Origin: an uncultured Nitrospirales bacterium
GTDB lineage: Bacteria > Hydrogenedentota > Hydrogenedentia > Hydrogenedentales > GCA-2746185
DNA length: 64,000 nt
Direction of reading: 5' to 3'
Assembly (NCBI GenBank): GCA_964620045.1
Contig: CAZUJL010000022.1
Coordinates: forward strand, 1,498 to 65,497
The position numbers and the translations under genes were made by a program. The notes beneath the pieces are model-generated. The model searched no databases. It was not told where the DNA came from and saw only the letters and a list, made by a program, of their open reading frames with translations. This document shows, piece by piece, positions 15,228 to 51,115 of the stretch (position 1 is the stretch's first letter; each line of letters starts with the position of its first letter).

Positions 15228-15241
15228 AGGAAATCCTTGGA

Positions 15242-24487: not shown

Positions 24488-24575
24488 GCCGTCCCTACGG
24501 GACTGATTGGGTGATGCGGGCATGGACCCCGGCGTTGAAACGCCGGGCTACTATCATCTGCCCCTCCGGGGCAAT
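24488..24575. repeat. structured intergenic repeat element, copy A (three hairpins)
   Basis: Shares cgtccctacgggact (hairpin gtccc-tac-gggac) and a terminal gcccctc(c/t)ggggc hairpin with a second copy at 41470-41558, at nearly identical spacing (69 vs 71 nt); the central hairpin differs in sequence but not in structure (ccccggcg-ttgaaa-cgccgggc here). Confidence 0.5.
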
Positions 24576-30281: not shown

Positions 30282-30320
30282 ATCGACAAATCAAAGTCCG
30301 TTCACAGGGGTTTTAATCTC

Positions 30321-31139
30321 ATGACCAGCCCTATCCCTGACTTTTCGGCGTGCAGGGAGCGTATTGACAGGGCAAATAGCAAAGCCCAATTCGTTATAGA
30401 TCAATGGAAATCTCTTCACGAGAACAACCGACCAAAAACATCTCTCAAAGACAAGGGTGACGGACGACATATCATCTGCGTAACATCTCCCAGCATTCCG
30501 TCTAGCCTCGCGCTCGAATTGGGCGAAGTTCTCTATCAAATTCGCGCTGCACTAGATAATGCCGTTTACGCCAGTTGCGTTTGTGATTGCACCAACGACT
30601 TTACCAAGTACGAAAGAGACATTGGATTTCCTGTTTGTGCTACACCCAAATCTTTCAAAGATCGCGTTGAGCACAAATGTTTGGATAAGAAGCGCATTCA
30701 GATTCTTCGAACTATACAACCGTTTTACACCGACAATATGCCGAACGAATTTAAGTTCAGGTGTTACTCTTGGGCCTTTCATGTTCTTAACGAGTGGGCC
30801 AAAATCGATAGGCATCGACGATTGCATGTTCTCACTGCAGCATTCTTTGACCCATCGATAAGCTTTACATTCGGAAAACAGGTTGTCATTGCTAACCCAA
30901 CGCTCTACAAAATTCAGTTTCTGGAAGGTGAAACCGACATAGGGGAATTGACCATCATCAATCCACATGGCACCCCGACGACCATGGATACGGAAACAAA
31001 CTCGATATTCGATATCGAGATTGGGATCAAGGAGCCTCCTTTGCCCTTGGTTCAAGAAGACACGTTGACTCACCGTCTCAACACAATCTTCGAGGCGTCA
31101 AGAGCCATTATCCAAGCCTTTCAAGAAAGCTATTCGTAA
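30321..31139 (+). CDS. hypothetical protein encoded in a low-GC island
   Basis: 272 aa, Cys-containing, no recognisable motif; local GC about 40-45% against about 67% background. Confidence 0.4.
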   Translation: MTSPIPDFSACRERIDRANSKAQFVIDQWKSLHENNRPKTSLKDKGDGRHIICVTSPSIPSSLALELGEVLYQIRAALDNAVYASCVCDCTNDFTKYERDIGFPVCATPKSFKDRVEHKCLDKKRIQILRTIQPFYTDNMPNEFKFRCYSWAFHVLNEWAKIDRHRRLHVLTAAFFDPSISFTFGKQVVIANPTLYKIQFLEGETDIGELTIINPHGTPTTMDTETNSIFDIEIGIKEPPLPLVQEDTLTHRLNTIFEASRAIIQAFQESYS

Positions 31140-31590
31140 AACCAAATCTACATACATTCGCGCAGCGTAACTTCGGACAATCTAGGCAAAAGTCACGCAT
31201 ACAATTCCTCAAAAACCCCTTATTTTTCGCTGAATTCATTCCTCTATCGGATCGCCGAAAGTGTGGTTTTATACGCCTCGGATCGCTATATGTAGTGATC
31301 TGGCAAGAAGAATTTTCAATTCGTAGAAAATAATCGTTGACATGCACAATATGTTGTGTTATAAAGGTCGCGGTGTCAGGGGGTGACACAGCAGGGGGAC
31401 CGGACGGCGTTCACATCTCTCCACAGCCCAGCAGCGTGGACGCACCAACGGACGGTAATTGGCTCTGCAACGAGTTTGACGGAACGCGGTGACCGCAGCC
31501 CACCCGCCCCGTCGTTTGTAGCTCGGACCCGTGCCTAGCGCCAGGTATACGGAGTTACACCCATAGACACACCCCGCAATGTACGGGCGG

Positions 31591-31632
31591 TGGGTTTCGA
31601 CCCACCGCCCCGTCTCTTTTTAGGGCGCAGGA
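31591..31632 (+). terminator. strong intrinsic terminator-like hairpin with no upstream ORF
   Basis: Perfect 11-bp stem gggcggtgggt / acccaccgccc with loop ttcg, followed by cgtctcttttt; nearest upstream plus-strand CDS ends 450 nt away. Confidence 0.5.
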
Positions 31633-31725
31633 TTGAACTCCCGCGAGGGGGTGTATAGACTACGGCCCTTCCAGTGGGCCGCATTTCGCGGGTTTTTTCT
31701 TAATTTTTGGGCCTTGTCCTCATTC

Positions 31726-32862
31726 ATGAAAATTTTTGTTCCGAGAGAGACCTTTCCGGGCGAAACCCGGGTGGCGCTGCTTCCCGCGACGGTCAAAAAG
31801 CTCGTGGGCGTCGGCGCGGAGGTATCCATTGAGCCCGGCCTTGGGCGCATCATCGGGATTGAGGATGCGGCGTACACCGAGGTGGGCGCGACGCTGAGCG
31901 ATGCCACCGCGGGCCTGGGCAACGCGGACATCGTGGTGCGCCTGCGCCGGCCGGCGGCCGGTGATATCGCGCAGATGCGCGAGGGCGCCGTGGTTGTTGG
32001 CCTGCTCGACCCCTTCACGAATGCGGACGGGCTGCGCGCGCTGGCCGCGCGGAAGATCTCCGCGATTTCGATGGAAATGATTCCGCGCACGACGCTGGCG
32101 CAGAAAATGGACGTGCTCAGCTCGCAGGCAAACCTGGCGGGGTATGTGGCCGTGATTCTGGCGGCCGAGCGGCTGGATAAAGTGCTGCCGATGATGATGA
32201 CGCCGGCGGGCACGATCTCGCCGTCGAAGGTGTTCATCATCGGCGTCGGCGTGGCGGGTCTGCAGGCGATCGCGACGGCGCGGCGGCTTGGCGCGCGCGT
32301 GGAAGCATTCGACACGCGGCCGGTGGTGGAAGAACAGGTGCAATCGCTCGGCGCGAAGTTCGTGAAGATTGATCTCGGCGAGACCGGCCAGACGGCGCAG
32401 GGCTACGCCAAAGAACTCACGCCGGAACAGCAGGCCATGCAGCGCGCGGGCATGGCAAAGGCGTGCGCGCAGGCGGATATTGTGATCACGACGGCGCAGT
32501 TGTTCGGCAAACCCGCGCCGCGATTGGTGACGGCGGAGATGATCGCCGGCATGAAGCCGGGCAGCGTGGTCGTGGACCTCGCGGTCGAGAGCGGTGGCAA
32601 TGTCGAAGGCTCGAAGCTCGACGAAGAAGTGCTTGTGAACGGCGTGCGCATCATCGGCCTTGGAAATCTTCCGGGGCATGTGGCGTCGGTGGCGAGCCAG
32701 ATGTACTCCGCGAACGTCGGCAGCTTGATCGAACATTTCTGGGACAAGACCGAGAAGCGCCTGCAGCTCAAGCTGGACGACGACATCATGAAGGGCGCGC
32801 TGGTGACGCACGGCGGCGAAATCGTGAATCCGATGCTGAAGGAACGCGTGGGCGCGGCCTGA
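31726..32862 (+). CDS. pntAA: NAD(P) transhydrogenase alpha subunit, part 1 (dI domain; alanine-dehydrogenase-like fold)
   Basis: Start at MKIFVPRETFPGETRVALLP (ORF track begins 31633); SAISMEMIPRTTLAQKMDVLSSQANLAGY ... VFIIGVGVAGLQAIATARRLGARVEAFDTRP closely matches PntA dI; no pntAB or pntB follows in this window. Confidence 0.75.
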   Translation: MKIFVPRETFPGETRVALLPATVKKLVGVGAEVSIEPGLGRIIGIEDAAYTEVGATLSDATAGLGNADIVVRLRRPAAGDIAQMREGAVVVGLLDPFTNADGLRALAARKISAISMEMIPRTTLAQKMDVLSSQANLAGYVAVILAAERLDKVLPMMMTPAGTISPSKVFIIGVGVAGLQAIATARRLGARVEAFDTRPVVEEQVQSLGAKFVKIDLGETGQTAQGYAKELTPEQQAMQRAGMAKACAQADIVITTAQLFGKPAPRLVTAEMIAGMKPGSVVVDLAVESGGNVEGSKLDEEVLVNGVRIIGLGNLPGHVASVASQMYSANVGSLIEHFWDKTEKRLQLKLDDDIMKGALVTHGGEIVNPMLKERVGAA

Positions 32863-38388: not shown

Positions 38389-39366
38389 ATGTCTTCCCGT
38401 TCTGCATCCGGCCGTCGTGGCGGCTTCACTCTCATCGAGTTGCTGGTTGTGATCGCGATCATCGGCATCTTGGCCTCGATTCTGTTGCCGGCGCTGGCGC
38501 GGGCCCGCGAGGCGGCGCGCCGCGCGAGCTGCGCGAACAATCTGAAGCAGATCGGGTTGTCGCTGAAGATGTACGCGAGCGAGACGCGCGGCGAGCGCTT
38601 CCCGCGGCTGCAGGGTACGAATTGCGAGCCGGAGATTCTGCCGTCGTACAACTGGATGTTCGATGTGCAGACGGTGTACCCGGAGTATTTGCCGGATCTG
38701 AACGTGATGGTGTGCCCGAGCGCGCTGGGCGGCGCGGATGCCGTTGCGCGGTGGGACAAGGGCGAGAACTACAATCCGAATTGGGAAGAAGCGTCGAACC
38801 CCGTGCTGGGCGTCTCCAATGACGGCAAGGTGACCGGGTGCGAAGTGCTGGCGGAGCCGTATTTCTACTACGGGTGGACGCTGTACCGCAGCCAGTTCCA
38901 GACCGAAGAGGACGTCGAGATCCTTGAGGAAGCGCTGCACTTTGAGTTTGAAGAAGAAGTGGAAGACGAAGCGATGATCACGAACGACATCGACGAGTTG
39001 AAGGAATTCCTCGACGAAGACATGCACCTCGAAACCTCGGAGGGCGTGATTGAACCGATCGACGGGAAGGACCATCTGCTGCGCTTGCGCGAAGGCATTG
39101 AGCGCATCTTCATTACCGACATCAACAACCCGGGCGCGTCGGCGCAGGCGGCCTCGGATATTGTGGTGATGCACGACTCGATCGAAGAAAACCCCAACGA
39201 CTTTAACCATGTGCCGGGCGGCGTGAATGTGCTGTACCTTGACGGCCACGTGAACTTTGAGAAGTGGGTGCCGAACGGCGCCGGCAACTACGGCGCGCCG
39301 TTCCCCGTGAATGCGGCGGCGCTGGAGCTGCACGAAATCGGCGAAGGCGAAGAAGAGGAAGAATAA
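38389..39366 (+). CDS. prepilin-type N-terminal cleavage/methylation domain protein (pilin-like with H-x-DGH C-terminus)
   Basis: [25 protein letters not shown] prepilin signal; C-terminal [16 protein letters not shown]; acidic Glu-rich tail. Confidence 0.7.
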
Positions 39367-39720: not shown

Positions 39721-39840
39721 CTCCATCCCGTTCCAAAACCGCTGACGCCCGGTGTGTGTGCACACACGGGCCGGCTGGCCGTAACTCCGGCGCATTGCGT
39801 CGCCGCGCGGCCCAGCCTGGACTTCAACAGGAGCCATACC

Positions 39841-40809
39841 ATGAACACAAGACGCCCGAGCCGTGGGTTTACGTTAATTGAATTGCTGGTGGTCATCGCG
39901 ATCATCGGGATACTTGCCGCTATTCTTTTGCCGGCGCTGGCGCGGGCACGCGAGGCGGCGCGCCGCGCGAGTTGCGCGAACAACCTGAAGCAGATCGGAT
40001 TGTCCCTGAAGATGTATGCGAGTGAGACACAGGGCGAGCGCTTTCCGCATATCAAGACGACCAATTGCTTTCCGGAAATCCACGAGACGTATGTGTGGAT
40101 GTTCGATGTGCAAGCGATGTACCCCGAGTATCTGCCGGACCTGAACGCGCTGGTGTGCCCCAGTTCGTTTGGCGGCGCGGATGCGGTCGCGCGGTGGGAC
40201 GAGGGCGATCAGGAAAGCCCCGAGTGGGAGGAAGTGAACAATCCGCCGCTGGGTGTGTCGCACGACGGCATTGTGACCGGGTGCGAGGTGGTCGACCATC
40301 CGTATTACTACTACGGCTGGGCGTTCCATCGGGATATGTTCAAGAGCACGACGGACTTTACGACGCTGGAAGATGTGCTGGTGTTTGAGTTCAACGAGGA
40401 GTACAAGCCGGCGTTCGACGTGGACAATTACGAGGCCGTGCGGCAGTTTGTCGACAGCGATCTGGAACTGGAAACGGCGCCGGATACCTTCGGAGAGATT
40501 GATGGTCGCGACTACATCGCGCGGTTGCGCGAAGGCATTGAGCGCATCTTTATCACGGACATCAATAATCCAGGGGCATCGGCACAGGCGCAGTCGAATA
40601 TTGTGGTAATGCACGATGCGATTTCGCCGGAGCCGGAGCATTTCAACCATGTGCCCGGCGGCACGAATGTGTTGTACCTAGATGGGCACGTGGATTTTAC
40701 GAAATGGATTCCCTCGCCGGAGAGCCTGGGCGGGCCGTTCCCGGTGAACGGGGCGGGGTTGATCCTGCACGAAGTGCCGGAGGAACTGGCGGGCACGCAC
40801 ACGCATTAA
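39841..40809 (+). CDS. prepilin-type pilin-like protein (tandem paralogue of 38389..39366)
   Basis: ATG 39841 ([62 protein letters not shown], near-identical to the upstream paralogue); C-terminal [16 protein letters not shown]. Confidence 0.7.
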
Positions 40810-40860: not shown

Positions 40861-41445
40861 GTGTGCGATGTGCTATCGTACTTGGACTGCGGGACTCATC
40901 TTGTGAGCGAAACCCTACCCAACGAGAACGTGCGGCCGATCGTCATTCGTATTCTGGCGATCAGCGCGGCGGCGTTTCTGTTTTTGCTGTGGTTGCTGTA
41001 TTTCAAGGGGCCGTCGGACTCGAGCGGGCATAGTTTGTCGTTCTTGCCGGCGGTGAATGCGACGCTGAACGGGCTTGCGGCGGCGTGCATCACGGCGGGC
41101 GTGATCGCGATCAAGAGCGGGCGCAAGCGGCTGCACATGACGCTGATGATCACGGCGGTGTCGCTGTCGATCGTGTTTCTGGTCAGCTACATCACGTACC
41201 ACAATCTGCACGGCGACACGAAGTTTGTGACGCACGGCACGATTCGCACCGTGTACTTCTTCATCCTGATTTCGCATATAGCGTGCACGGTGTTTGCGTT
41301 ACCGTTGATCATGAGCGCGGTGTTCTTCGCGATCACGAAACGGTTTGAGCTGCACAAGCGCGTGGTGAAGTACACCGTGCCGTTGTGGCTGTACGTCTCG
41401 ATTACGGGCGTGGCGATTTACTTCCTGCTGAAGGCGAATTCCTGA
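40861..41445 (+). CDS. DUF420-like (CtaM-like) four-TM membrane protein
   Basis: LNATLNGLAAACITAGVIAIK ... SYITYHNLHG ... IRTVYFFILISHIACTVFALPL ... VPLWLYVSITGVAIY resembles the DUF420 family, which is linked to aa3-oxidase function in Bacillus; family identity from memory. Confidence 0.45.
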   Translation: MCDVLSYLDCGTHLVSETLPNENVRPIVIRILAISAAAFLFLLWLLYFKGPSDSSGHSLSFLPAVNATLNGLAAACITAGVIAIKSGRKRLHMTLMITAVSLSIVFLVSYITYHNLHGDTKFVTHGTIRTVYFFILISHIACTVFALPLIMSAVFFAITKRFELHKRVVKYTVPLWLYVSITGVAIYFLLKANS

Positions 41446-41469
41446 CGCCGCGTATCGACCGCGTTTCTG

Positions 41470-41558
41470 TCGTCCCTACGGGACTTGATGCCGAGGTCGC
41501 TATCGGCATACCCACCGCTGAAGCGGTGGGCTAAATTCTGTCGCCCCTCTGGGGCTCA
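41470..41558. repeat. structured intergenic repeat element, copy B (three hairpins)
   Basis: cgtccctacgggact ... cccaccgc-tgaa-gcggtggg ... gcccctctggggc; same architecture and spacing as copy A at 24488-24575; followed at 41581-41619 by a 16-nt direct repeat containing the 12-bp palindrome gcaatgcattgc. Confidence 0.5.
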
Positions 41559-41649
41559 CCGTCGGTGCAATTTCTCGAGTTGCAATGCATTGCGTTTAGA
41601 GTAGCAATGCGTTGCGTTTCGAAGAATATGTAGTATCGGTTTGCGAGAC

Positions 41650-42222
41650 TTAGCCTTTTAACTTCTGAATCATCTCGGCGACGCGTTTGCCGATGGCTTC
41701 CACGCTGGCCTGCTGCTGGGCATCCTTGAGTTTGGGGCCGTCGAAGGCTTCGTGCGCCTTCATGACGGCGACCTGATCCGGCAGCACGAGCGTCTGGATA
41801 TTTCCCAGGATCGAGCGTACGGTCACGAGGCCGCGCAGGCCGCCGAGCGCGCCGGGCGACGCGCTCATGAGTCCGGCTACTTTGCCGACGTAGGCCTCCA
41901 ACGGCTTCTCGGCCCCTTCGCGGCGCGAGGCCCAGTCGATCGCGTTTTTCAGGAGCGGCGTGATTGAACTGTTGTACTCCGGCGCGGAGATCAGGAAGCC
42001 GTCGTGCGACTTCATGAGTTCCTTAAAGGTCTTCGCATTCGGCGGGAGGCCACTGCGTGCTTCGTCGTCTTCGTTGTACAGCGGCAAGGGTAAGGCATTC
42101 CAATCGACGAGCGTTACCGTGGCGCCGGCGTTGCGCGCGCCGTCGGCGGCGATTTTCACAAGGCGCGTGTTAAACGAATCGAGCCGGGCGCTGCCGGAGA
42201 ACGCGAGAATTTTCGGGGTCAT
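41650..42222 (-). CDS. NADPH-dependent FMN reductase-family flavoprotein
   Basis: 190 aa; MTPKILAFSGSARLDSFNTRL ... FLISAPEYNSSITPLLKNAIDW typical of NADPH-dependent FMN reductases. Confidence 0.75.
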   Translation of the reverse strand: MTPKILAFSGSARLDSFNTRLVKIAADGARNAGATVTLVDWNALPLPLYNEDDEARSGLPPNAKTFKELMKSHDGFLISAPEYNSSITPLLKNAIDWASRREGAEKPLEAYVGKVAGLMSASPGALGGLRGLVTVRSILGNIQTLVLPDQVAVMKAHEAFDGPKLKDAQQQASVEAIGKRVAEMIQKLKG

Positions 42223-42243
42223 GCGGGTGATTTCCTCTTCGTT

Positions 42244-43035
42244 TTACTGCGTGATGATCTGCGGCTGACCGTCGGGCACGCAGAGATACTGATCGAAATC
42301 CGTGTAACCGATGCCGCGCAGGAAGTCTTCGTCGATGAGGGCCTCGCCGTTGGATTTATCGGGATGCTGCACGATTTCCCAGGTGGCATCGGCCAGGATA
42401 TCGGCCTTGCGCCAGAGGGTCGGATCGCCGAGCTTCCAGTTGATCGTGGCGAAGGACTCGATGAGCGTCTTCGGCCAGAGGGCGGTCGCACGGATGTTGT
42501 ACTCGCCGAATTCCTGCGGCAGGCCGTGCGCGATCATCGTCATGCCGAATTTGCTGATGCAATAGCCGATGTGGCTGGGGAGCATCCGCAGATCGATCGG
42601 CGGCGACATGAGTACGACGTGGCCGGACTTTTGCGCCTTCATCGCGGGCAGAAAGGCCGTGGTGACGGCGAAGGAGCCGCGCGCGTTCACGTCCATCATC
42701 AGGTCGAAGCGCTTCATGGGCGTTTCGTCCATGGGCTTCCACCAGAGCGCGCCGGCGTTGTTGATCACGACGTCAACCCGGCCGAATTTTTCGAGCGTGG
42801 CCTTGGCCGCTTGTTCGACGCTTTGCAGATCGGTCACGTCGCAGCGAACCGGGAAGGCCTCGGTGCCGTGGCGGGAAATTTCGTCGGCCGCGCTGAAGAT
42901 CGTGCCGGGGAGCTTCGGGTTTTCCTCGGTGCTTTTCGCCGCGACGACAATGTCGTAGCCTTCGCGCGCGAAACGATGCGCGCAGGCCTTGCCGATGCCG
43001 CGGGACGCGCCGGTGATGAATGCCACTTTTCTCAT
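42244..43035 (-). CDS. short-chain dehydrogenase/reductase (SDR)
   Basis: Start MRKVAFITGASRGIGKA at 43035 (the ORF-track 535-aa frame runs through from the upstream gene); NNAG ... catalytic YxxxK (YCISK). Confidence 0.75.
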   Translation of the reverse strand: MRKVAFITGASRGIGKACAHRFAREGYDIVVAAKSTEENPKLPGTIFSAADEISRHGTEAFPVRCDVTDLQSVEQAAKATLEKFGRVDVVINNAGALWWKPMDETPMKRFDLMMDVNARGSFAVTTAFLPAMKAQKSGHVVLMSPPIDLRMLPSHIGYCISKFGMTMIAHGLPQEFGEYNIRATALWPKTLIESFATINWKLGDPTLWRKADILADATWEIVQHPDKSNGEALIDEDFLRGIGYTDFDQYLCVPDGQPQIITQ

Positions 43036-43919
43036 TGCGTTGCCTCCTTCGGCGCAGCGGCCGGGGCTTTGGACTGCATCGCGGCGGCGACCTTGGCGAT
43101 CGCCGCGCGCACATCGGCTTCGGCGTTCCACGGCACCCAGTGGCTCTTGCCGTCCAGCCGCATCACGTCCACGATGGTACCAGCCGGGAACTCGCGACGC
43201 ATGTAGTCTACATTCGAATGCGGCACCAATATATCGTCTGGCGCGTGCACGATCACGATCGGACAATGCAGTTCCTTGAGGCGCGGCTGCATGGCTTCGA
43301 GTTCGGCCTTCATCGGCCGGAGTTCGCGGTCGGAATTCCGCAGAAAATACGGGACCATATAGGGAACAAAGGCGAAACCCACCACGTGCTGGTACCACGC
43401 GATTTTTTCCAGAGACGGGTCGAGGGAGCCGGAGAGGATGACGAGGCCGCCGACGCGATCGGGGTATTGCAGGGCGGCCTCGACGATGATGGGACCGCCG
43501 AGCGAGTGGCCGACGAGAATCGTGCCGCGGCCGCCGCGGTTTACGAGCAGCGGTTCGAGGCACTGCGCCTGTTCTTCCATCGTGTAGACCGGCTTGCGCG
43601 GCGTTGTGTGCCCGAAGCCGGGTCGATCGACCGAGACGGAGTCGAAGCCCGCGATGGGCGACGTGAGGTAATCCTCGAAGGCGGTGGCGTCGCCCGGCGT
43701 GCCGTGGACGTACAGAATGCGCGGCAACTGATTGGCGTCGGGCATGGGCGCGGCGATGTAGCTCATCGTGAAACCGTTGGACGACGGCACGGTGCCGCGG
43801 ATGAGGCCGGCGTTTTCCATCGGCAACACGAAGGCGTCGTATACGCGGCATGAGGCAAATTCGAGCACAAGCAGGACGATGAGCGTGATGCCGAGGATGC
43901 GGAAAATCTTACGGCGCAT
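43032..43919 (-). CDS. alpha/beta-fold hydrolase
   Basis: N-terminal TM anchor; nucleophile elbow GHSLGG; overlaps SDR gene start by 4 nt. Confidence 0.65.
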   Translation of the reverse strand: MRRKIFRILGITLIVLLVLEFASCRVYDAFVLPMENAGLIRGTVPSSNGFTMSYIAAPMPDANQLPRILYVHGTPGDATAFEDYLTSPIAGFDSVSVDRPGFGHTTPRKPVYTMEEQAQCLEPLLVNRGGRGTILVGHSLGGPIIVEAALQYPDRVGGLVILSGSLDPSLEKIAWYQHVVGFAFVPYMVPYFLRNSDRELRPMKAELEAMQPRLKELHCPIVIVHAPDDILVPHSNVDYMRREFPAGTIVDVMRLDGKSHWVPWNAEADVRAAIAKVAAAMQSKAPAAAPKEATQ

Positions 43920-43925
43920 AACGGG

Positions 43926-44750
43926 TCAACCGGTGCCGAGCTCCGTGAGGCCGAGCACCTGTTCGCGCGCCTGCGCGGCGAGGACTTTGCGGTCGGTCTC
44001 GCCTGGCGGGATGGGCTCGCCGAACACGACCACCACGCTGACGCCGCGCAGCCCAAGCACGCGCCAGAGGTGCGGCACGAGCGTGTGATCGTCGCGCCAA
44101 TAGGCGATGTCTTCCGTGAGCGAGGCGTTCGGCGCGGTCACGCCCCAACGCAGACCCACGGGCAGCAGCGGCACGGCGCGATTGATGGCGGGCTGCACGA
44201 GAGAGGCGTGAAACGGCATGACGCGATCGCCGGCGCTGGTGGTGCCTTCCAAGAACACGCAGACCGGCACGCCGGCATCGAAACGTTCGCCGATTTTTTC
44301 GTTGACGGCGGCGACGCTGCGGCGATCGGCGCGCGCAATGCCGATGTGTTCGGAAGTGTTGAACAAGTGCCCGATGATGGGCCAATGCACGACGTCCGCT
44401 TTGGAGACGAACATCGTTGCGGTGACGGCACCGACGGCCATGATGTCGAGATAACTGATGTGGTTCGGCGTGAGCAGCACGGCCTGGTGCGGCGGCATGC
44501 CGGCGGAGGTGACGGAGATGCCGCCGATCCGCGCGATGCCCACGAGCCAGCGGTGGGTGTACTCCGCGGCGAAGCGACGGCGTTCAGCTGGGTCGCGCGT
44601 GGAGAAACGCGCGCGCAGGTGGATGAGGTGCGAGTAGAGCGTCCAACCGCCGATGAGAAAGAGTCGCCACGCGGACAGCGCGTGGTTGATGCGGGCGCGC
44701 GGCATGGTTTCTTCACTGCCGTCCGCGTGCGCGGGCGTGGTTGCACTCAT
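43926..44750 (-). CDS. lysophospholipid/lyso-aminolipid acyltransferase (PlsC family; OlsA-like)
   Basis: NHISYLD (HxxxxD acyltransferase motif) and FLEGTTS (FPEGTRS-like); overlaps the upstream GNAT gene by 4 nt. Confidence 0.7.
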   Translation of the reverse strand: MSATTPAHADGSEETMPRARINHALSAWRLFLIGGWTLYSHLIHLRARFSTRDPAERRRFAAEYTHRWLVGIARIGGISVTSAGMPPHQAVLLTPNHISYLDIMAVGAVTATMFVSKADVVHWPIIGHLFNTSEHIGIARADRRSVAAVNEKIGERFDAGVPVCVFLEGTTSAGDRVMPFHASLVQPAINRAVPLLPVGLRWGVTAPNASLTEDIAYWRDDHTLVPHLWRVLGLRGVSVVVVFGEPIPPGETDRKVLAAQAREQVLGLTELGTG

Positions 44751-45589
44751 TCGATCACGTCCAACCGCGAGAGCGCGACGCCCTTGCCGTCCATCTGGAT
44801 CAGGAAATCGACCGTGCCGAATTCGCGGTCGATTGCGGGTTCGGAGACAACGAGCGCGCCGAGTTTCAGGTAGGTGCGGAAGAGTTTTGGGATTTTAAGC
44901 GCCGGACCGAGCTTCGGATCGTGCTCGCGCGCGGCGTCGCCACAGGAGCGATCCGGTTGCGCCCGTAGCCAGAGATCCGGGTGCAGGCATTTCGCCTCGC
45001 GCAGGGTCTTCAGCGCACGCCAGCCGTCGTCGGGGTCCTGCGTGGTCAGCGAGCAGCAGCCGAAGAGGTAGCGCAGGTTGTGCGCGTTCATGTAGGCGCC
45101 GATGCCGAGCCACATGGCGATCATCGCCCGGAAATTGCGGTGATCGGCGGCGAGACAGGCGCGTCCGACTTCGACGCTTTCTTCCAGGAACGGCGCCATT
45201 GGCGCGAGATCGTATTGCTCGGCCGAGTAAATGCCGCCGTTGCGCGAGGCTTCGCCGGCGGATTGCAGGCGGTAGGTGCCGACGATGCGCCCGGTTTGTT
45301 GCTCCATGAGGACGAGGTGCGTCATTTGATCGTCGTAACGATCTGCGTCGAGCCCGGTTTCCATGGAGGATGCGAGGCCTTCTTCGAGTTCGATATTGAA
45401 CACAAGAAAGCGCAAGCGCTGGGCGGCTTCGACGCACTTCGTGGAATTGGCGAACCCGGCGACGTAGCGATCGGTGTCGCCGTGCGGCAGCGCGAGAAAA
45501 TCTACCGTGCCCCAGCGATCGCGGAAGTCTGCGGCACCTTCGAACGGCGCGCGCGTCAGCGCCTGATCACCGTGTTCGACCCGTGCCAT
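44747..45589 (-). CDS. GNAT-fold N-acyltransferase of the OlsB/hemolysin-like family
   Basis: 280 aa; family size, and translational coupling to a PlsC-type acyltransferase, mirror the olsB-olsA ornithine-lipid operon; assignment relies partly on context. Confidence 0.5.
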   Translation of the reverse strand: MARVEHGDQALTRAPFEGAADFRDRWGTVDFLALPHGDTDRYVAGFANSTKCVEAAQRLRFLVFNIELEEGLASSMETGLDADRYDDQMTHLVLMEQQTGRIVGTYRLQSAGEASRNGGIYSAEQYDLAPMAPFLEESVEVGRACLAADHRNFRAMIAMWLGIGAYMNAHNLRYLFGCCSLTTQDPDDGWRALKTLREAKCLHPDLWLRAQPDRSCGDAAREHDPKLGPALKIPKLFRTYLKLGALVVSEPAIDREFGTVDFLIQMDGKGVALSRLDVIE

Positions 45590-45603
45590 GGTGTGGCCTC
45601 GAT

Positions 45604-47253
45604 TTACCCCGCGATGGGGTAGTTCCGCGACAAACGCCGATAGAGTAACACATCTTTAATGAACTGTAACGGACCCAGCGGCGCGTGGCCCGCGCGACGA
45701 TTCGCGTCGCCGATCACGAACAACACCTTGTACTGGTCGAACAACGTGCGGTAGGCGTCGAGCAGGCGCGCTTCGGGGTCCCAAATGTGCGTGGCCTCGG
45801 CGCCCGCGCCGTTCACTTCCACAATCATGAATCCCTCGCCCCGCTGCAAAGATTCAACGTCGCGGAAGCGGATGTCGAACCGGCCGAAGAAAAAGCGCGG
45901 CAGGCCGTGGGCGATCTCGTCTATTCGGGCCGAGAGCGCGGGCGTCAGCAGGTGCAGGCCGTCGCGGAAAATGCAGCCCTGAGCGTGGTTTCCGGCAAAG
46001 ACCAGCGGGAAGCGCTCGCCGATGGTGAGGACGCGATCGAGCGAGGCGGCGTGGCGTTTGAAATAGACTTCGGAGACGAGCTTTGCGCGATCGTCCGCTT
46101 CGATCAGCTCGCGCAGCGTGCGTTCACCGTCGCCGACGACGAAGGGAAACTCCTTGAGCGTCACCGAGACGATGCGACCGCGCTGCTCGGAGGGCAAGCG
46201 GTAATACATCAGGCCGACTTCGTGCTTGAAGGGCGCGAGCGTCTGCAACACGATTGTGATGCCGCGCGGCATGGTTTCAAAATACGCGCGCAGATCGTGT
46301 GCGGTGTAAATCGGCCGCACACCGGCGCCGCGCTGGCCCTGATCGGGTTTCGCGACGATCGGCAGGACGAGCCCGGCAGCGGAAACCACGGCGAGTGCGG
46401 CTTCGACGTGTTCGTCGAGCGAACCTTGCGCGGTGAAGTGATACGTCGTGTGTGGCGCGAACCAGCGGCGCTCGGATTCGGGGACGAGATCGAGGATCTG
46501 GCTTTTTGATTCGCGGATCATGCCGCCGGAGTAGATGGAGGGGTTGACGGCGGTGGGCAGCGTGAGGCTGCGGAAACGAACAGCGAGCCAGAAGTAATAG
46601 AGTCCGACCGGGATGTAAAACAAGAAGGGATGCCAGAACTCGAACATCGACGCGGGGGCTTCTTCGGCGGTGACGCTTGCGGGGTCCTCGGCCATGCGTT
46701 TGTACGAGCGGCGCTGGATAAGGATGACGACGACGATGAGCGCGGCGCCGACGGCCCATTTCAGCTCGCCGAGCAGCGGAAGAATCGCGCGCCCGAGATA
46801 CACGATCGACGTGACCGCGGTGAACGTCCACAACATGGACGCGAAGATGGCACAGGGAAGGTAGCGCTTGAGGCTGGCGCGCGCCATGCCGACGGCGAGG
46901 TTCGCGGGCAGGCGCAGGCCGGGCACGAAACGCGAGACCATGATCGCGGTGAACATATTGTCGTCGAACCACACGCGCATGCGCTCGAGGCGGTGCTTGG
47001 ACACGAGCTTACGCTTGACGATCCACGGCTCCAGGTAGCGTCCGGCGACGTAGAGCAGCCAGTCCCCCACGCCGATGCCGATACAGAGGCCGGCGATCGC
47101 GGTTTCGTAGAGCATCTGATCGTCGGCGACGAGCAAAGCGCACGCGATCAGTGTCGGGTCTTCCAGCACGAAGGTGCACAGCATGATGACGATGACTTGC
47201 AGAAAGGGATCGCTGGAGAGCGCGCGCAGGGCGGAATCGAAATAGGCTTCCAC
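45604..47253 (-). CDS. membrane protein: DedA/VTT-type N-terminal domain fused to a C-terminal ATP-grasp-like domain
   Basis: GTG 47253 (1 nt after the upstream stop) or ATG 47186; N-terminal TM region with FVPGLRLP DedA-like motif; C-terminal 330 aa with PIVAKPDQGQRGAGVRPI resembling the ATP-grasp nucleotide-binding loop. Confidence 0.45.
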   Translation of the reverse strand: MEAYFDSALRALSSDPFLQVIVIMLCTFVLEDPTLIACALLVADDQMLYETAIAGLCIGIGVGDWLLYVAGRYLEPWIVKRKLVSKHRLERMRVWFDDNMFTAIMVSRFVPGLRLPANLAVGMARASLKRYLPCAIFASMLWTFTAVTSIVYLGRAILPLLGELKWAVGAALIVVVILIQRRSYKRMAEDPASVTAEEAPASMFEFWHPFLFYIPVGLYYFWLAVRFRSLTLPTAVNPSIYSGGMIRESKSQILDLVPESERRWFAPHTTYHFTAQGSLDEHVEAALAVVSAAGLVLPIVAKPDQGQRGAGVRPIYTAHDLRAYFETMPRGITIVLQTLAPFKHEVGLMYYRLPSEQRGRIVSVTLKEFPFVVGDGERTLRELIEADDRAKLVSEVYFKRHAASLDRVLTIGERFPLVFAGNHAQGCIFRDGLHLLTPALSARIDEIAHGLPRFFFGRFDIRFRDVESLQRGEGFMIVEVNGAGAEATHIWDPEARLLDAYRTLFDQYKVLFVIGDANRRAGHAPLGPLQFIKDVLLYRRLSRNYPIAG

Positions 47254-47254
47254 G

Positions 47255-48019
47255 TCAGCGCGCCTGGGCCGGCGCCGCAAGCAGACGCAGCGAGCAATGC
47301 GTGGCGGCGTCGCGCGTTTCGGGCGTGGGCGTCGGCCAGTAGCGCAGCTCGACCCGGCCCGGGTTCGCATGCACACGCGCCTGCGTGATGCTGCGCGTGG
47401 CGGACCATTCGCGCCGCATCAAGGGCGAGCGTTCCGCGTGGCCGGCTTCCTGGAGCAAATGAAACGCCGGCAGGGTGTCGATGTGCGCAGCGCCGTCCGC
47501 GATCCAGCGATTGAACCGTTCCTCGCGCCAGCGCACGACTTCGGCGCTGTCCCAACCCGAGGACGAGCGCACCAGCCATGGATCGCGATTCGTAATCGTG
47601 GTGAGCGAACCTTTGCCGAGCCATTCACAGATCAATGTTTGATCCAGTGACGCGACGAGCAAGGTGAACGATGGATACTGCGCGGCGTCCAGTTCCGATT
47701 TAATCCAGTGCTGCGCAGCATCGCCATCGCCGGCGGCGAGCACGGCGGGAACGATTTCGCCGCGCGTGCGATAGCGGCCCGTCGTATCCGGCAGCAGGCT
47801 TTCGCCGGGCTGATAGGCGTTCATAATGCAGGCGACCACGCCGCAGGCGTTGGCCCCCATCCAGGTGCCGCCTTTTTCGCTGTCGATGGGCGCGACCCAA
47901 TCGCCGTTGGCGGCCGCGTGCAGTTCAGGCTTTCGTTCCGGCGCGCGGGAATAAGCCTCGTCGCGGTTCATCGTCGCGGTGAACCCGGAGCCGGTGCGTT
48001 GGATGGTCACCGTACACAT
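47255..48019 (-). CDS. NRDE/TANGO2-family protein
   Basis: MCTVTIQRTG start (Cys2) and MNRDEAYSRAP (NRDE motif) as in the PF05742 family. Confidence 0.55.
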   Translation of the reverse strand: MCTVTIQRTGSGFTATMNRDEAYSRAPERKPELHAAANGDWVAPIDSEKGGTWMGANACGVVACIMNAYQPGESLLPDTTGRYRTRGEIVPAVLAAGDGDAAQHWIKSELDAAQYPSFTLLVASLDQTLICEWLGKGSLTTITNRDPWLVRSSSGWDSAEVVRWREERFNRWIADGAAHIDTLPAFHLLQEAGHAERSPLMRREWSATRSITQARVHANPGRVELRYWPTPTPETRDAATHCSLRLLAAPAQAR

Positions 48020-48040
48020 CGAATAAAACCGCCTGCGAGG

Positions 48041-48565
48041 TTAGCGGACCGCCGTCTGCCGGAAGGCGGCCGTCGAAAAGGCCAGCGCGAGGTCTTCGGG
48101 AAGGTCGACCCCCTGTTCGCGACAGAGATTTCGGACCACGGCGAGATGGTGGATCGTGTGGCTCGACAGAAACACAAGTTCACGCTCGACCGTCGATTCC
48201 AGGGTGCTCGGCTCGCTGTCGAGCGCGGCCGTCTGGCGCACGGTGATGCGCTGGCGCAACTGGTCTGGGGTCAGCGTCGAAAGGGTGCGGCAAACGTTCG
48301 CCAGGGCCTCGCGAAAACAGGCCGGATCGCGCTCGATGGATTCATCGCGATCGCGCGCGTCGTAATCCACCACGCCATCGCCCAGTCCGCGCAAGAAGCA
48401 GATGAAGTGTTCGGCGGCGTGCCGCAGGTGCGCGCCGATGGGCGAGCGTCCCGGTGCGGCGGTGGCAAACATCTCGAAGGAAATGGCGTCGACAATCCGT
48501 TCACATCTGCCGCAGGCATCGATACATCCGCGAACTGCGGGACTGACAGACGGTGTCATTTGCAT
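48041..48565 (-). CDS. DinB/YfiT-like (DinB_2 superfamily) putative metal-dependent protein
   Basis: Start at MQMTP (48565; ORF track to 48700); His triad context HLRHAAEHF ... HTIHHLA. Confidence 0.4.
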   Translation of the reverse strand: MQMTPSVSPAVRGCIDACGRCERIVDAISFEMFATAAPGRSPIGAHLRHAAEHFICFLRGLGDGVVDYDARDRDESIERDPACFREALANVCRTLSTLTPDQLRQRITVRQTAALDSEPSTLESTVERELVFLSSHTIHHLAVVRNLCREQGVDLPEDLALAFSTAAFRQTAVR

Positions 48566-48799
48566 ACGAGAATCGGTTCTCCCCGAACGAATGCGCAGCA
48601 CACGGCAGGAGTCTAGCACCGCCGATTTATGCCGAACAATCCGCACAATTTCCGCAGTGCGCGGGGTCTGCGCGACGGTTGAATAACCCCTGGGTCGCAT
48701 CCGTCTAATCTTGTACCGGGCTGCAGCCTGTATGTTAGACTGTCGGCCCTGAAACCGGGTTGAGCAGCCACGTTTAGCGTGGTAAAGGAAAGGTTACTC

Positions 48800-49465
48800 A
48801 TGCGAATTCTCACTGCGGCGGCCCTGCTGTTGCTGCCGATGGCCCCTGTTGCGATGGCGGACGACGCCAAGGTCGAACTGAAGATCGAGCTTCCGGAACC
48901 CTATTTCGGCGGCACGCCGTTGGACTATTTTGGGCCGAATCTTGAGGAACCGGATTACAAGCCGCGGGCGCCGTTCATGGTGCCGGACGGCACGACGAAT
49001 GTGGCCAAGGGCAAGACGGTGACCAGCCAGGCGGCGCCGAGCTTCGGCAAGCTGGAAATGCTGGTTGACGGCGACAAATCTTATAAAGACGAGAGCTTGT
49101 TGGGCCTTGAGCGCGGCCTGCAGTGGGTGCAGGTCGACCTTGGTTCGATGAACGCGCTGTATGCGTTGCTGCTGTGGCACTTCCACCAGGGCGATCGCGT
49201 GTACTTCGACGTGATCGTGCAGGTGGCGGACGACGCCGAGTTCACGAAGAACGTGCGCACGGTGTTCAACAACGACCATGACGACACCTCGGGCCTGAAG
49301 CTGGGCGCGGGCACGAACAAGGAATACATCGAGACCTACAAGGGCAAGCTGGTGGATCTCGGCGGCGTGAAGGCGCGCGCGATCCGTTTCTATAGCAAGG
49401 GCAACACGACGGACGACTTCAACCACTACGTCGAAGCCGAAGTGTTCGGCAAGGCCGCCGAGTAA
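48800..49465 (+). CDS. secreted discoidin (F5/8 type C)-like domain protein
   Basis: ATG 48800 with AAGGAAAGG RBS; signal peptide; WVQVDLGSMNALYALLLWH ... ARAIRFY pattern reminiscent of discoidin domains. Confidence 0.4.
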   Translation: MRILTAAALLLLPMAPVAMADDAKVELKIELPEPYFGGTPLDYFGPNLEEPDYKPRAPFMVPDGTTNVAKGKTVTSQAAPSFGKLEMLVDGDKSYKDESLLGLERGLQWVQVDLGSMNALYALLLWHFHQGDRVYFDVIVQVADDAEFTKNVRTVFNNDHDDTSGLKLGAGTNKEYIETYKGKLVDLGGVKARAIRFYSKGNTTDDFNHYVEAEVFGKAAE

Positions 49466-49489: not shown

Positions 49490-51115
49490 GTGAGCCGGTC
49501 TTCCCGAAAGCGCGGCGCGCGGACGGGCACCGCCATTCTTTTGCTACTCATCGCGGGCGCAGCGCTCGCGGTGCGCAGCCTCGATCTTGAGCTGCGTCCG
49601 GTCCATGGCGACGAAGCCAACCAGGCGTACAAGACCGGGAAGCTGCTCGAGACCGGCAAGTACGTCTACGATCCGCACGATCACCACGGACCTACGCTCT
49701 ATTATTTAGCGTTGGTGCCGCTGGCCGCGTCCGGCGCGCACACGATGGCGGACGCCGAAACGTGGATGCTGCGCGCGGTGCCGGTGGCGTTCAGCGTCGC
49801 GACGCTGCTGCTGTTCATTCCCTTGCGCAACGCGTTGCCGCCGGGCGGCGCACTGTGCGCGGCGCTGCTGCTCGCCTTCTCCCCCGCGTTTACTTTTTAT
49901 GCGCGCTACTACATTCAGGAAACGCTGCTGGTCTTTTTCACGCTGTCGGTGATCGTGTTCGGCTGGAAGTACGCGCAGCTTCCGGGACGCCTGAACGCGA
50001 TTGGCGTGATGGTGTCGCTGTGTTTGATGCATGCGACGAAAGAAACGGCCGTGCTGGCGTGGGCGGCGATGGGTTTTGCATTGGTGGTCACGCTGCTGTG
50101 GCGTTACGGCGTCCGTGAATCGATCGAGCGCGTGAAAAACACGGTGCGTCCGCGCGATTTTCTGGCGGGATTCATCGTCGCGCTGATCATTTCGGTGGTG
50201 TTGTTTAGCGCCTTCTTCACGCACTGGCGCGGGCCGCTGGACAGCATTCTCACGTATCGCAACTACCTCACGCGTGCGGGCGGCGCGGGGATTCACGACA
50301 AGCCGTGGTACTACTACCTCTCGTTGCTGGCATACACGCATCGCGGACCGGGGCCGGTGTGGAGCGAAGGGGCGGTGCTGGTGTTGGGCGTGATTGGCAT
50401 TGTGATCGCGGCGTGGCGCTTGCCGAATCTTCCGCGCGATACGGATGAATACGGCGATCCGTGGCTACTGCGATTCTTCGCGATCTATACGATCGTGCTC
50501 GCGATGATGTACGCGGCGGTGCCGTATAAAACGCCGTGGTCGCTGCTGAGTTTTTATTTTGGCGTGATCGTGCTGGCCGGCGTGGCGGTGGCCTATGGCA
50601 TTGCGCTGGCCCCGCCGGCGTGGCGGCGTAGCGCGGTGGTTACGGCGTTTGTACTCGTGCTGGCGCACCTCGGGCTGCAGTCCTGGCGCGCAGAGACGAC
50701 CTACGCGGCGGATGTGCGCAATCCTTGGGTATACGCGCACACATCGACGAACCTCGCGGAACTCGCGAAACGCATCGACGAGATCGCGGCGGTGGGGCAT
50801 GGCGCAGACACGACAATTCAGGTGATCCAGCCGGACAACGATTACTGGCCGCTGCCGTGGTATCTGCGGCGCTACGCGAAAACCGGCTACTGGAATACGA
50901 TGCCGGCGAACCTTGATGCGGACATTATTGTGTCCAGCCCGCGCATCGGCAACGACCTTCGCGGGCGGCTGGGCGAAGCTTATTTCGGGCCGTCCATGTA
51001 TAGCCTGCGGCCGGCGGTGCTGCGGGAATTGTACGTGCGCAAGGAGCTGTGGGACGCGTTTATGGCGAAGCGGGCGGCGGAATCGACAAGCGGCGAGACG
51101 CCGCTTCCACATTAA
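49490..51115 (+). CDS. GT-C superfamily membrane glycosyltransferase (ArnT/PMT-like, polyprenyl-phosphate-sugar dependent)
   Basis: 541 aa, more than 10 TM; early periplasmic-loop acidic motif VHGDEANQ; architecture typical of ArnT/GT39/GT83 enzymes. Confidence 0.6.
   Translation: MSRSSRKRGARTGTAILLLLIAGAALAVRSLDLELRPVHGDEANQAYKTGKLLETGKYVYDPHDHHGPTLYYLALVPLAASGAHTMADAETWMLRAVPVAFSVATLLLFIPLRNALPPGGALCAALLLAFSPAFTFYARYYIQETLLVFFTLSVIVFGWKYAQLPGRLNAIGVMVSLCLMHATKETAVLAWAAMGFALVVTLLWRYGVRESIERVKNTVRPRDFLAGFIVALIISVVLFSAFFTHWRGPLDSILTYRNYLTRAGGAGIHDKPWYYYLSLLAYTHRGPGPVWSEGAVLVLGVIGIVIAAWRLPNLPRDTDEYGDPWLLRFFAIYTIVLAMMYAAVPYKTPWSLLSFYFGVIVLAGVAVAYGIALAPPAWRRSAVVTAFVLVLAHLGLQSWRAETTYAADVRNPWVYAHTSTNLAELAKRIDEIAAVGHGADTTIQVIQPDNDYWPLPWYLRRYAKTGYWNTMPANLDADIIVSSPRIGNDLRGRLGEAYFGPSMYSLRPAVLRELYVRKELWDAFMAKRAAESTSGETPLPH

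Follow-up and report, generated by a model that had tools for sequence, protein, structure and literature searches.

An OlsB/OlsA-type acyltransferase pair within a conserved DedA/ATP-grasp gene module: candidate machinery for aminolipid head-group modification

Many bacteria replace phospholipids with aminolipids under stress. In the OlsB/OlsA route, an N-acyltransferase of the GNAT family acylates an amino acid with a 3-hydroxyacyl chain, and a PlsC-type enzyme then O-acylates the product; the bifunctional OlsF synthases carry out the same two chemistries. Relatives of OlsB and OlsF also produce glutamine, glycine and lysine lipids (PMC12971839). Some aminolipids carry a dipeptide or tripeptide as head group (Ser-Gly, Orn-Ser-Gly), and the review that describes them names no extension enzyme (PMC12971839). 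For the ATP-dependent enzyme that forms cerilipin, a taurine-carrying ornithine lipid, the activity is known and the gene and sequence are not (PMC12971839); our literature search for this gene found no later identification. Here we describe a gene pair of the OlsB/OlsA type, and the operon around it, in a stretch of 64,000 nucleotides (hereafter the window) from an uncultured Nitrospirales bacterium (GTDB lineage Hydrogenedentota; GenBank assembly GCA_964620045.1, contig CAZUJL010000022.1, positions 1,498 to 65,497 of the forward strand).

A preliminary description of this DNA had singled out the pair (window positions 43926-45589) as a candidate ornithine-lipid operon. The pair forms the middle of a tight eight-gene operon on the minus strand (48565-41650), and the notable result lies outside the coordinates of that description: a conserved module of ATP-grasp, DedA, TANGO2, DinB and hydrolase genes that appears to be coupled to aminolipid synthesis. 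The conserved core of this module, made up of the DinB-like, TANGO2/NRDE, DedA/ATP-grasp and membrane α/β-hydrolase genes, travels with aminolipid synthases across phyla. Judging from family assignments and gene context, we favour with some reserve the reading that the OlsB/OlsA-type synthase builds an acyloxyacyl aminolipid and that the co-operonic ATP-grasp module modifies the head group of this lipid with ATP. In the searchable literature we found nothing on the DedA/ATP-grasp fusion, on a link between it and aminolipid synthases, or on TANGO2 homologues in aminolipid clusters.

A divergent OlsB/OlsA-type pair

Both open reading frames are present where the preliminary description had placed them, on the minus strand, and they overlap by four nucleotides: at the junction ...ATCGAATGAGTGCA... 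the ATG of the second gene and the TGA of the first share the letters ATGA (the GNAT to PlsC overlap reads ATCGAATGAGTG). The two motifs reported for the PlsC protein could be located as well, HX4D as HISYLD (residues 97-102, window 44462-44445) and FxEGTxS as FLEGTTS (residues 166-172, window 44255-44235). The GNAT gene, in turn, starts 14 nt past the stop codon of the ATP-grasp gene. Since the order GNAT-then-PlsC comes back, often down to the 4-nt overlap, in 25 related loci of several phyla, the pairing is well beyond chance.

The curated families argue for lipid acyltransferases. The top NCBIfam matches of the GNAT protein are the OlsB equivalogs NF052554 (133 bits, E 1.2e-38, model positions 7-245 of 256) and NF052555 (121 bits), with OlsF third (85 bits), and its Pfam family is Acetyltransf_5. 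The assignment that the preliminary description had proposed as a check by hidden Markov models thus came out positive, and the protein groups with lipid N-acyltransferases rather than with the non-lipid N-acyltransferases which that description had named as the contrary case. The PlsC protein likewise matches the OlsA equivalogs NF052553 and NF052552 best (122 and 100 bits), ahead of generic 1-acylglycerol-3-phosphate acyltransferase (73 bits). A sequence search of the PDB with the GNAT protein returned no solved relative.

Two marginal Pfam matches of the GNAT protein, to FeeM (E 1.1e-3) and to the autoinducer synthases (E 8.2e-3), would suit a different product, namely a soluble N-acyl amino acid signal of the FeeM/NAS type in place of a membrane lipid. 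Both matches fall under the Pfam cut-offs, however, whereas the OlsB match is near full length, and the gene is translationally coupled to a PlsC O-acyltransferase in the company of membrane-bound partners. A soluble signal therefore seems highly improbable to us.

Neither protein reaches the NCBIfam equivalog cut-offs (133 versus 350 and 121 versus 320 bits for the two OlsB models; 122 and 100 versus 300 bits for the OlsA models). We calibrated the OlsB cut-offs with the best OlsB scores of other genera: Sinorhizobium (511 bits) and Paracoccus (445 bits) pass, and Ralstonia (174 bits), a Kitasatospora homologue adjoining a PlsC gene (143 bits) and Acinetobacter baumannii (77 bits), all three likely OlsBs by homology, fail. 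From these scores we conclude that the equivalog cut-offs delimit alphaproteobacterial orthologues and not function. As a membership criterion they were dropped, since likely OlsBs of three non-alphaproteobacterial genera fall short too.

In a neighbour-joining tree (200 bootstraps; a distance method with a small reference set), the window GNAT groups with 27 relatives in a clade of 28 members with 96% support, outside the clade of canonical OlsB sequences and apart from the OlsF C-terminal domains. All 28 members are encoded beside an ATP-grasp gene in the loci sampled. The comparison group, to which the window GNAT is 22-30% identical, comprised five canonical-type OlsBs (Sinorhizobium, Paracoccus, Ralstonia, Kitasatospora, Acinetobacter), the proteins of loci L063 and L076, and five OlsF C-terminal domains. 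Of the earlier proposal of an OlsB/OlsA ornithine-lipid pair, the OlsB/OlsA type stands, but ornithine as head group is unproven, because the GNAT has a clade of its own and OlsB/OlsF relatives make other aminolipids. We regard the pair as a new, divergent OlsB/OlsA member that is predicted to make an amino-acid-headed membrane lipid.

A DedA/ATP-grasp module beside aminolipid synthases

The ATP-grasp ligase encoded directly upstream of the pair is fused to a DedA membrane domain. This DedA/ATP-grasp family has at least 1375 members in a protein set clustered at 90% and, at E≤1e-30, 1699 representative clusters, with relatives in 318 species genomes (one genome per species) that include Hydrogenedentota, Sumerlaeota, Acidobacteriota, Myxococcota, Desulfobacterota, Bdellovibrionota, Lentisphaerales, Planctomycetota, Burkholderiales and Sphingomonadales. 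We took a census of the neighbours within 6 kb of the ATP-grasp gene in 79 fetched loci, 43 of which offer at least 3 kb on both sides (full-flank loci). An aminolipid N-acyltransferase lies within this distance in 57 of the 79 loci and in 36 of the 43 full-flank loci (84%), either as an OlsB-like GNAT (46/79) or as an OlsF-like bifunctional synthase (11/79). The other neighbours counted were DinB-like (47/79), TANGO2 (26/79), α/β-hydrolase (26/79), PlsC (25/79), YHS (22/79), DoxX (20/79) and group-II pyridoxal phosphate (PLP) decarboxylase (5/79) genes.

The synthase takes the form of OlsB-like plus PlsC proteins in Hydrogenedentota, Sumerlaeota and Burkholderiales, and of a full-length OlsF-like protein in Acidobacteriota, Desulfobulbaceae and Vibrio aquimaris. 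Where it occurs, the OlsF-like gene replaces the OlsB and OlsA genes; in 10 of the 11 loci it immediately follows the ATP-grasp gene, and in L023 it immediately precedes it. Three Acidobacteriota loci were scanned and gave 351-355 bits over the full NCBIfam OlsF model; the other loci were recognised by BLAST or tblastn similarity to these. Because an N-acyltransferase is present in either architecture, the link between ligase and aminolipid synthase persists, and its survival through a change of synthase architecture is in our reading the strongest argument for placing the ligase in the aminolipid pathway. In the reverse test, which started from long contigs with a member of the GNAT clade, two of three showed the full DinB-TANGO2-DedA/ATP-grasp-GNAT-PlsC-hydrolase set. 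A substitution was seen in locus L094 (4248-7577), where a 558-aa Acetyltransf_1/Acetyltransf_3 protein holds the DedA/ATP-grasp position directly upstream of a GNAT, 55% identical to that of the window, and a PlsC gene.

Gene fusions point in the same direction. Among the best 150 of the 1699 representative clusters, 102 are DedA+ATP-grasp proteins, 12 are ATP-grasp alone and 31 are proteins of 800-1030 aa, 25 of them with a BLAST-confirmed α/β-hydrolase ahead of DedA+ATP-grasp; two more (1121 and 1130 aa) unite TANGO2, α/β-hydrolase, DedA and ATP-grasp in one polypeptide. In all, the hydrolase is thus fused to DedA+ATP-grasp in some 27-33 of these 150 clusters, 27 of them by BLAST confirmation. 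TANGO2, hydrolase, DedA and ligase would therefore constitute one functional unit, and the hydrolase encoded downstream of OlsA can be assigned to the ATP-grasp module because it is fused to DedA+ATP-grasp elsewhere. The preliminary description had listed an α/β-hydrolase and then a short-chain dehydrogenase/reductase (SDR) as downstream neighbours on the same strand. Both are there, in that order and with Pfam and NCBIfam support, but the hydrolase is no casual neighbour. What had been overlooked is the most informative part of the locus: the upstream DedA/ATP-grasp, TANGO2 and DinB genes, and the membership of the hydrolase in their module.

These data bear directly on the simplest alternative, a plain OlsBA operon which makes unmodified ornithine lipid and is surrounded by unrelated stress genes with which it shares only transcription or regulation. 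OlsB and OlsA are indeed the best curated families of the pair, ornithine is the commonest head group in this lipid class (PMC12971839), and in some carriers the module lies distant from any N-acyltransferase. Unrelated flanking genes would nevertheless be difficult to reconcile with an N-acyltransferase of either architecture in those 36 of 43 full-flank loci from many phyla, with the tight or overlapping junctions, with a GNAT clade that occurs only beside an ATP-grasp gene in the loci sampled, and with the fusion of the post-OlsA hydrolase to DedA and ATP-grasp in other organisms. We consider this alternative unlikely.

The fusion protein begins at a GTG codon (47253) one base past the TANGO2 stop (junction TGAcGTG), and a 100% identical protein of 549 aa (P0121) is called with the same GTG start. 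Its DedA domain, which has a VTT match above the cut-off (Table 1), also matches the NCBIfam models UptA and DedA weakly. The 350 C-terminal residues (201-549) have no Pfam match even at E≤1, and two distant relatives weakly match RimK (24 bits) or ATP-grasp_3. A profile of 35 homologues, searched against the PDB, retrieved the G-domains of cyanophycin synthetases 2 and 1 (E 1e-6 to 8e-5) and then D-Ala-D-Ala ligases (Ddl). The AlphaFold2 model of the domain (predicted local distance difference test score, pLDDT, 84) found CphA2 (8.4e-9), CphA1 (2e-8) and then many D-Ala-D-Ala ligases in a Foldseek search of the PDB. K302 (in AKPD), R458, D460, E479 and N481 are invariant among the 35 homologues, and the KP and E-I-N segments align with CphA2; we take the invariant Arg, Asp, Glu and Asn to be equivalent to DdlB R255, D257, E270 and N272. 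With this invariant pattern of Lys, Arg and Mg-ligand residues and the matches to cyanophycin synthetases, the ATP-grasp domain is genuine and looks active. A conserved hydrophobic helix (residues 209-227) precedes it, and in the model this helix and a short conserved segment appear to replace the usual N-terminal subdomain, leaving a stump.

In the databases, homologues of the fusion are named "VTT domain-containing protein", "DedA family protein", "hypothetical protein" or "D-alanine--D-alanine ligase". We rejected a role as peptidoglycan Ddl in view of the DedA fusion, the identity of 10-20%, the missing N-terminal subdomain and the gene context, and regard the last of these labels as wrong.

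The two proteins encoded upstream of the ligase have conserved residues as well. The DinB-like protein, whose ATG at 48565 yields the same length as in its homologues, gave an AlphaFold2 model of high confidence (pLDDT 94) with YfiT, DinB, BstA and mycothiol S-transferase as best Foldseek matches, and its residues H46, H49, H53, D69, H136, H139 and H140 are conserved among 47 cluster homologues. Enzymes of the cysteine N-terminal-nucleophile (Cys-Ntn) class remove by hydrolysis, or transfer, acyl groups that are bound as non-peptide amides. The TANGO2 homologue, a putative member of this class, matches the human TANGO2 chains 8sv7/9bwa (E 1.3e-5); 25 of its 26 cluster homologues start with MCT, and C2 and N18-R19-D20-E21 are at least 90% conserved among the 26. 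In human TANGO2, the equivalent Cys2, Asn25 and Asp27 are the proposed catalytic residues (PMC13044924).

With such enzymes at hand, the module could also serve turnover or remodelling: TANGO2 would cut the amide and the hydrolase the ester, and the ATP-grasp and DinB proteins would process the released head group, possibly in membrane thiol or redox chemistry. Thiol S-transferases are among the proteins with a DinB/YfiT fold, recurrent partners of the module include YHS, DoxX, peroxiredoxin and Rieske proteins, and Cys-Ntn enzymes hydrolyse ceramides, N-acylethanolamines and bile-salt conjugates (PMC13044924). Degradative genes placed upstream of a synthase in one tight operon would be unusual, however, and degradation needs no ATP-consuming ligase; we rate turnover as very unlikely.

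The gaps between the eight operon genes measure, in order, 21, 1, 14, -4, 6, -4 and 21 nt, the second overlap being an ATGA that joins hydrolase and SDR. The hydrolase combines an N-terminal hydrophobic helix with a GHSLG nucleophile elbow, as read from its sequence. The two last genes are of narrower distribution: among the genome loci, the SDR is retained only in the closest relatives (L001, L002, L031, L049), and the flavin mononucleotide (FMN) reductase is syntenic only in L002, L031 and L049. A promoter and terminator scan of 41300-49000 gave counts not above those of shuffled sequences and thus no information on the operon boundaries.

Table 1. Genes and domains of the operon, from first to last; positions refer to the window
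Feature	Position	Strand	Evidence
DinB/YfiT-fold protein, 174 aa, first operon gene	48041..48565	-	Pfam DinB_2 E 3.3e-6
TANGO2/NRDE-family protein, 254 aa, putative Cys-Ntn amidase/acyltransferase	47255..48019	-	Pfam TANGO2 (PF05742) E 4.7e-15
DedA/VTT membrane domain, N-terminal ~200 residues of 549-aa fusion	46657..47253	-	Pfam VTT_dom (PF09335) E 6.1e-16, 59.5 bits, cut-off 33.9
ATP-grasp ligase unit, residues ~200-549 of fusion	45604..46656	-	Profile vs PDB, Foldseek
OlsB-like GNAT N-acyltransferase, 280 aa	44747..45589	-	Pfam Acetyltransf_5 (PF13444) E 6.5e-27, 94.7 bits, cut-off 22.4, residues 59-160; NCBIfam OlsB
OlsA-like PlsC O-acyltransferase, 274 aa	43926..44750	-	Pfam Acyltransferase (PF01553) E 3.6e-19; NCBIfam OlsA
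Membrane-anchored α/β-hydrolase, 295 aa	43032..43919	-	Pfam Abhydrolase_1 E 9.2e-21
SDR oxidoreductase (PRK08278 type), 263 aa	42244..43035	-	NCBIfam NF006133, 295 bits, cut-off 250
NADPH-dependent FMN reductase, 190 aa, last operon gene	41650..42222	-	Pfam FMN_red E 3.3e-40

Cultured bacteria also carry the module or parts of it. In Vibrio aquimaris (L084, NZ_CP045351.1, 7971-13663), genes for DedA, ATP-grasp, DinB, TANGO2, YHS, DoxX and OlsF-like proteins lie on one strand. Salinivibrio kushneri has VTT, ATP-grasp (labelled D-Ala-D-Ala ligase), DinB and NRDE genes, preceded by an SDR that is 25% identical to that of the window. Paracoccus denitrificans PD1222 encodes the ATP-grasp (WP_011751140) with an adjacent α/β-hydrolase and VTT protein, Azospirillum carries the fusion, and plasmids of Komagataeibacter have the ATP-grasp alone; an ATP-grasp homologue is also present in Ideonella alba and Blastomonas natatoria. 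On the Komagataeibacter medellinensis plasmid pGXY010 (L082, 6136-9068), the stand-alone ATP-grasp gene is divergent to genes for a class I S-adenosylmethionine methyltransferase and an 'iron-containing redox enzyme family protein', and no aminolipid synthase was found within 8 kb of it.

Further partners recur around the module and are absent from the window, as are the PLP decarboxylases. A secreted YHS protein ('YHS domain-containing (seleno)protein' in the NCBI Prokaryotic Genome Annotation Pipeline) and a DoxX-like membrane protein accompany the module as a pair, mostly in Burkholderiales and also in Myxococcota, Sumerlaeota, Bdellovibrionota and Vibrio. Just upstream of the module's DinB gene, a membrane fusion of ferric-reductase-like and Rieske domains recurs together with an unannotated protein of 255-270 aa (L092 3253-5222; L093 3766-5518; 8-10 genome loci, e.g. 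L007, L015, L022, L026, L040 and L041).

Vibrio cholerae VCA0646 is a proven ornithine-lipid synthase and the product of the last gene of the four-gene operon vca0649-0646 (PMC12186959). According to a preprint, this operon is activated by HapR, and overexpression of vca0646 together with vca0647 leads to cell death, a phenotype under quorum-sensing control; the preprint calls the functions of all four proteins unknown (10.1101/2024.09.23.614608). The V. cholerae genes upstream of vca0646 span about 1.7 kb, the length of the TANGO2, YHS and DoxX genes before the OlsF-like gene of Vibrio aquimaris, a likeness of size and position only.

The candidate ligation and its alternatives

In the scheme that we favour, the GNAT would move a 3-hydroxyacyl chain from acyl-acyl carrier protein to the alpha-amino group of an amino acid, and the PlsC protein would esterify a second acyl chain on the 3-hydroxyl, two steps suggested by family membership that would yield an acyloxyacyl aminolipid. 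ATP-grasp enzymes convert a carboxylate into an acyl phosphate and pass it on to an amine, more rarely to a hydroxyl or thiol. The ATP-grasp domain of the operon, presumably cytoplasmic and held at the membrane by the DedA domain and the hydrophobic helix, would activate a carboxylate in this way and make a head-group amide, the likeliest ligation being that of an amine or a second amino acid onto the free alpha-carboxylate of the aminolipid. Editing of the acyl chains may fall to the TANGO2-type Cys-Ntn enzyme for the amide-linked chain and to the α/β-hydrolase for the ester-linked chain. Lipid transport is a function in which DedA proteins have been implicated, and the DedA domain may translocate the product.

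Ligation at the carboxylate is the most economical assumption because an acyloxyacyl aminolipid has one free carboxylate. Head-group ligation is further favoured by the existence of two gene-less precedents, the ATP-dependent taurine transfer to the ornithine-lipid carboxyl and the dipeptide- and tripeptide-headed aminolipids without a named extension enzyme (PMC12971839), and by five loci from four phyla that add a potentially amine-supplying PLP decarboxylase. This decarboxylase gene adjoins the ATP-grasp gene in L023 (9701-11116), L040 (6074-7513), L041, L050 and L076, and the closest solved relatives of its product are cysteine sulfinic acid decarboxylase (E 1.9e-84), GADL1 and GAD. Enzymes of these types yield hypotaurine or taurine, beta-alanine and gamma-aminobutyric acid.

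The ligase could act at the other end of the lipid instead. As an OlsH-like N-acylating enzyme, it would turn a free (3-hydroxy) fatty acid into an acyl phosphate and transfer it to an amino acid or amine, with the hydrolase as an O-acyltransferase in the manner of OlsI, in a parallel route that is ATP-driven or serves salvage. Planctomycete OlsH/OlsI does join an ATP-dependent ligase with an α/β-hydrolase acyltransferase (PMC12493201), and the trio of ATP-grasp, hydrolase and DedA occurs without GNAT and PlsC in Paracoccus, in Myxococcota and in the fusion loci L092 and L093. In most loci, however, such an activity would be redundant with OlsB/OlsA or OlsF, and the nearest ATP-grasp relatives use amino-acid or peptide carboxylates, not fatty acids. 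An N-acylating ligase thus strikes us as quite unlikely.

Several points weigh against head-group ligation by the module. No N-acyltransferase lies near the module in 7 of the 43 full-flank loci, nor is there one near the modules of Paracoccus, Salinivibrio, Azospirillum and Komagataeibacter, so that these modules may serve a different lipid, or an aminolipid whose synthesis genes are unlinked. Both acyltransferases of the window score under the equivalog cut-offs (133 versus 350 bits for the GNAT, 122 versus 300 for the PlsC protein). The DinB/YfiT, YHS, DoxX, ferric-reductase+Rieske, SDR and FMN reductase proteins have no place in the ligation model, adjacency could be mere co-regulation, and the substrates of the ligase are not readable from its sequence.

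The fullest form of our proposal is accordingly a tentative one, which we put forward as a possibility and on which we would not insist: the DinB/TANGO2/α/β-hydrolase/DedA/ATP-grasp set might be a widespread and hitherto unrecognised machine for extending or remodelling the head groups of acyloxyacyl aminolipids, in which the ATP-grasp enzyme serves as an ATP-dependent amine:aminolipid ligase of the kind long sought for cerilipin or for lipodipeptides, and TANGO2 acts on the N-acyl amide.

Genomic setting and relation to known systems

The loci closest to the window, with an ATP-grasp protein 76% identical and flanking genes syntenic, are labelled Candidatus Hydrogenedentales. Eight further metagenome-assembled genomes (MAGs) of Hydrogenedentota follow (48-55% identity), and two MAGs are labelled Nitrospirales (69%) and one Rhodothermaeota (77%; two contigs, L031 and L053). 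The labels of the nearest MAGs thus disagree, the majority being Hydrogenedentota. The gene cluster is also present in some Planctomycetota MAGs (L030; Phycisphaeraceae fusion proteins). Singulisphaera acidiphila, the sole planctomycete whose ornithine-lipid genetics have been solved, has neither OlsB nor OlsF and relies on the GH3-like OlsH together with the α/β-hydrolase OlsI (PMC12493201); a Pfam match to GH3 was found in none of the eight operon proteins, which were the ones scanned. The preliminary description had appealed to the prominence of such lipids in Planctomycetota, a rationale to which we give no weight, since nothing in these data marks the window as planctomycetal. Two tandem paralogues at 38389-39366 (+) and 39754-40809 (+), which by translation reading carry a prepilin-type N-terminal methylation motif and are DUF1559-like, probably led it there.

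Around the operon, two divergent neighbours encode a 228-aa secreted protein (48779-49465, +) and a 541-aa multi-pass membrane protein (49490-51115, +); their synteny with the operon is seen in L001, L080 and L095, and related contigs label the corresponding genes F5/8 type C and PMT glycosyltransferase. Two copies of the Rfam motif Acido-Lenti-1 RNA lie at 41511-41556 (+, 56.7 bits) and 24528-24573 (+, 43.2 bits), with a gathering score of 37; the first sits in the convergent gap between the end of a plus-strand gene (40861-41445) and the last gene of the operon. G+C content drops at 14001-16000 (0.494) and 30001-32000 (0.532) from about 0.62 elsewhere, with a flattened GC skew; islands or RNA genes are possible causes.

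In humans, deficiency of TANGO2 is a severe disease of metabolism. The protein has been argued to be a Cys-Ntn hydrolase for a fatty-acid derivative of more than 500 Da, or an acyl-CoA binder (PMC13044924, PMC11867700). A bacterial TANGO2 encoded in, and sometimes fused into, a cluster for N-acyl-amino-acid lipids offers specific substrates to consider; if it does act on the N-acyl amide of such lipids, genomic context would for the first time hint at the class of native substrates that TANGO2 uses. The taurine transfer that forms cerilipin has been without a gene for about 50 years, and a membrane ATP-grasp tied to aminolipid synthases provides a concrete candidate class for the gene-less steps of aminolipid biosynthesis. 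Paracoccus denitrificans PD1222, Vibrio aquimaris, Salinivibrio, Azospirillum and Ideonella alba are cultured, tractable carriers.

With the taurine:ornithine-lipid transferase of Gluconobacter cerinus, the module shares the reaction type expected of its ATP-grasp, an ATP-dependent amide formed on the carboxyl of an acyloxyacyl aminolipid; a cysteine-sulfinate-decarboxylase-like gene occurs in five module loci, and Acetobacteraceae such as Komagataeibacter have ATP-grasp homologues. The Komagataeibacter homologue does not lie beside an aminolipid synthase, however, and the likeness is one of reaction type only. The cyanophycin synthetase G-domain, RimK and D-Ala-D-Ala ligase resemble the ligase in fold, in the conserved Lys and Mg-ligand residues and in joining an ATP-activated carboxylate to an amine, whereas identity is 17-20% and the window protein is fused to DedA and has no Pfam family match. 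OlsH/OlsI of Singulisphaera acidiphila also places an ATP-dependent ligase and an α/β-hydrolase in an aminolipid operon (PMC12493201), but OlsH is an adenylating enzyme of the GH3/ANL type and not an ATP-grasp, and the window operon has OlsB and OlsA besides.

MprF, the aminoacyl-phosphatidylglycerol synthase and flippase, offers an analogy only: it too joins a cytoplasmic head-group enzyme to a membrane domain of a lipid-transporter family, but the folds are unrelated, MprF uses aminoacyl-tRNA and not ATP, and the transport role of DedA is putative. If our reading holds, the DedA/ATP-grasp fusion would join MprF as a second case of a lipid-modifying enzyme fused to such a domain, and would provide a functional handle on a DedA protein. 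With OlsB/OlsA of the Sinorhizobium meliloti type, the window pair shares the succession of an Acetyltransf_5 GNAT and an HX4D PlsC protein and the best curated families; it differs in the low identity (22-30%) and separate clade of its GNAT and in its place within a DinB/TANGO2/DedA-ATP-grasp/hydrolase operon, which is undescribed for OlsBA. Where the ornithine/lysine-lipid synthase OlsF is a single protein, whose model scores the GNAT at only 85 bits, the window encodes two; the two chemistries are the same, and OlsF-like genes replace the pair in 11 loci beside the ATP-grasp gene and lie in the same cluster in Vibrio aquimaris.

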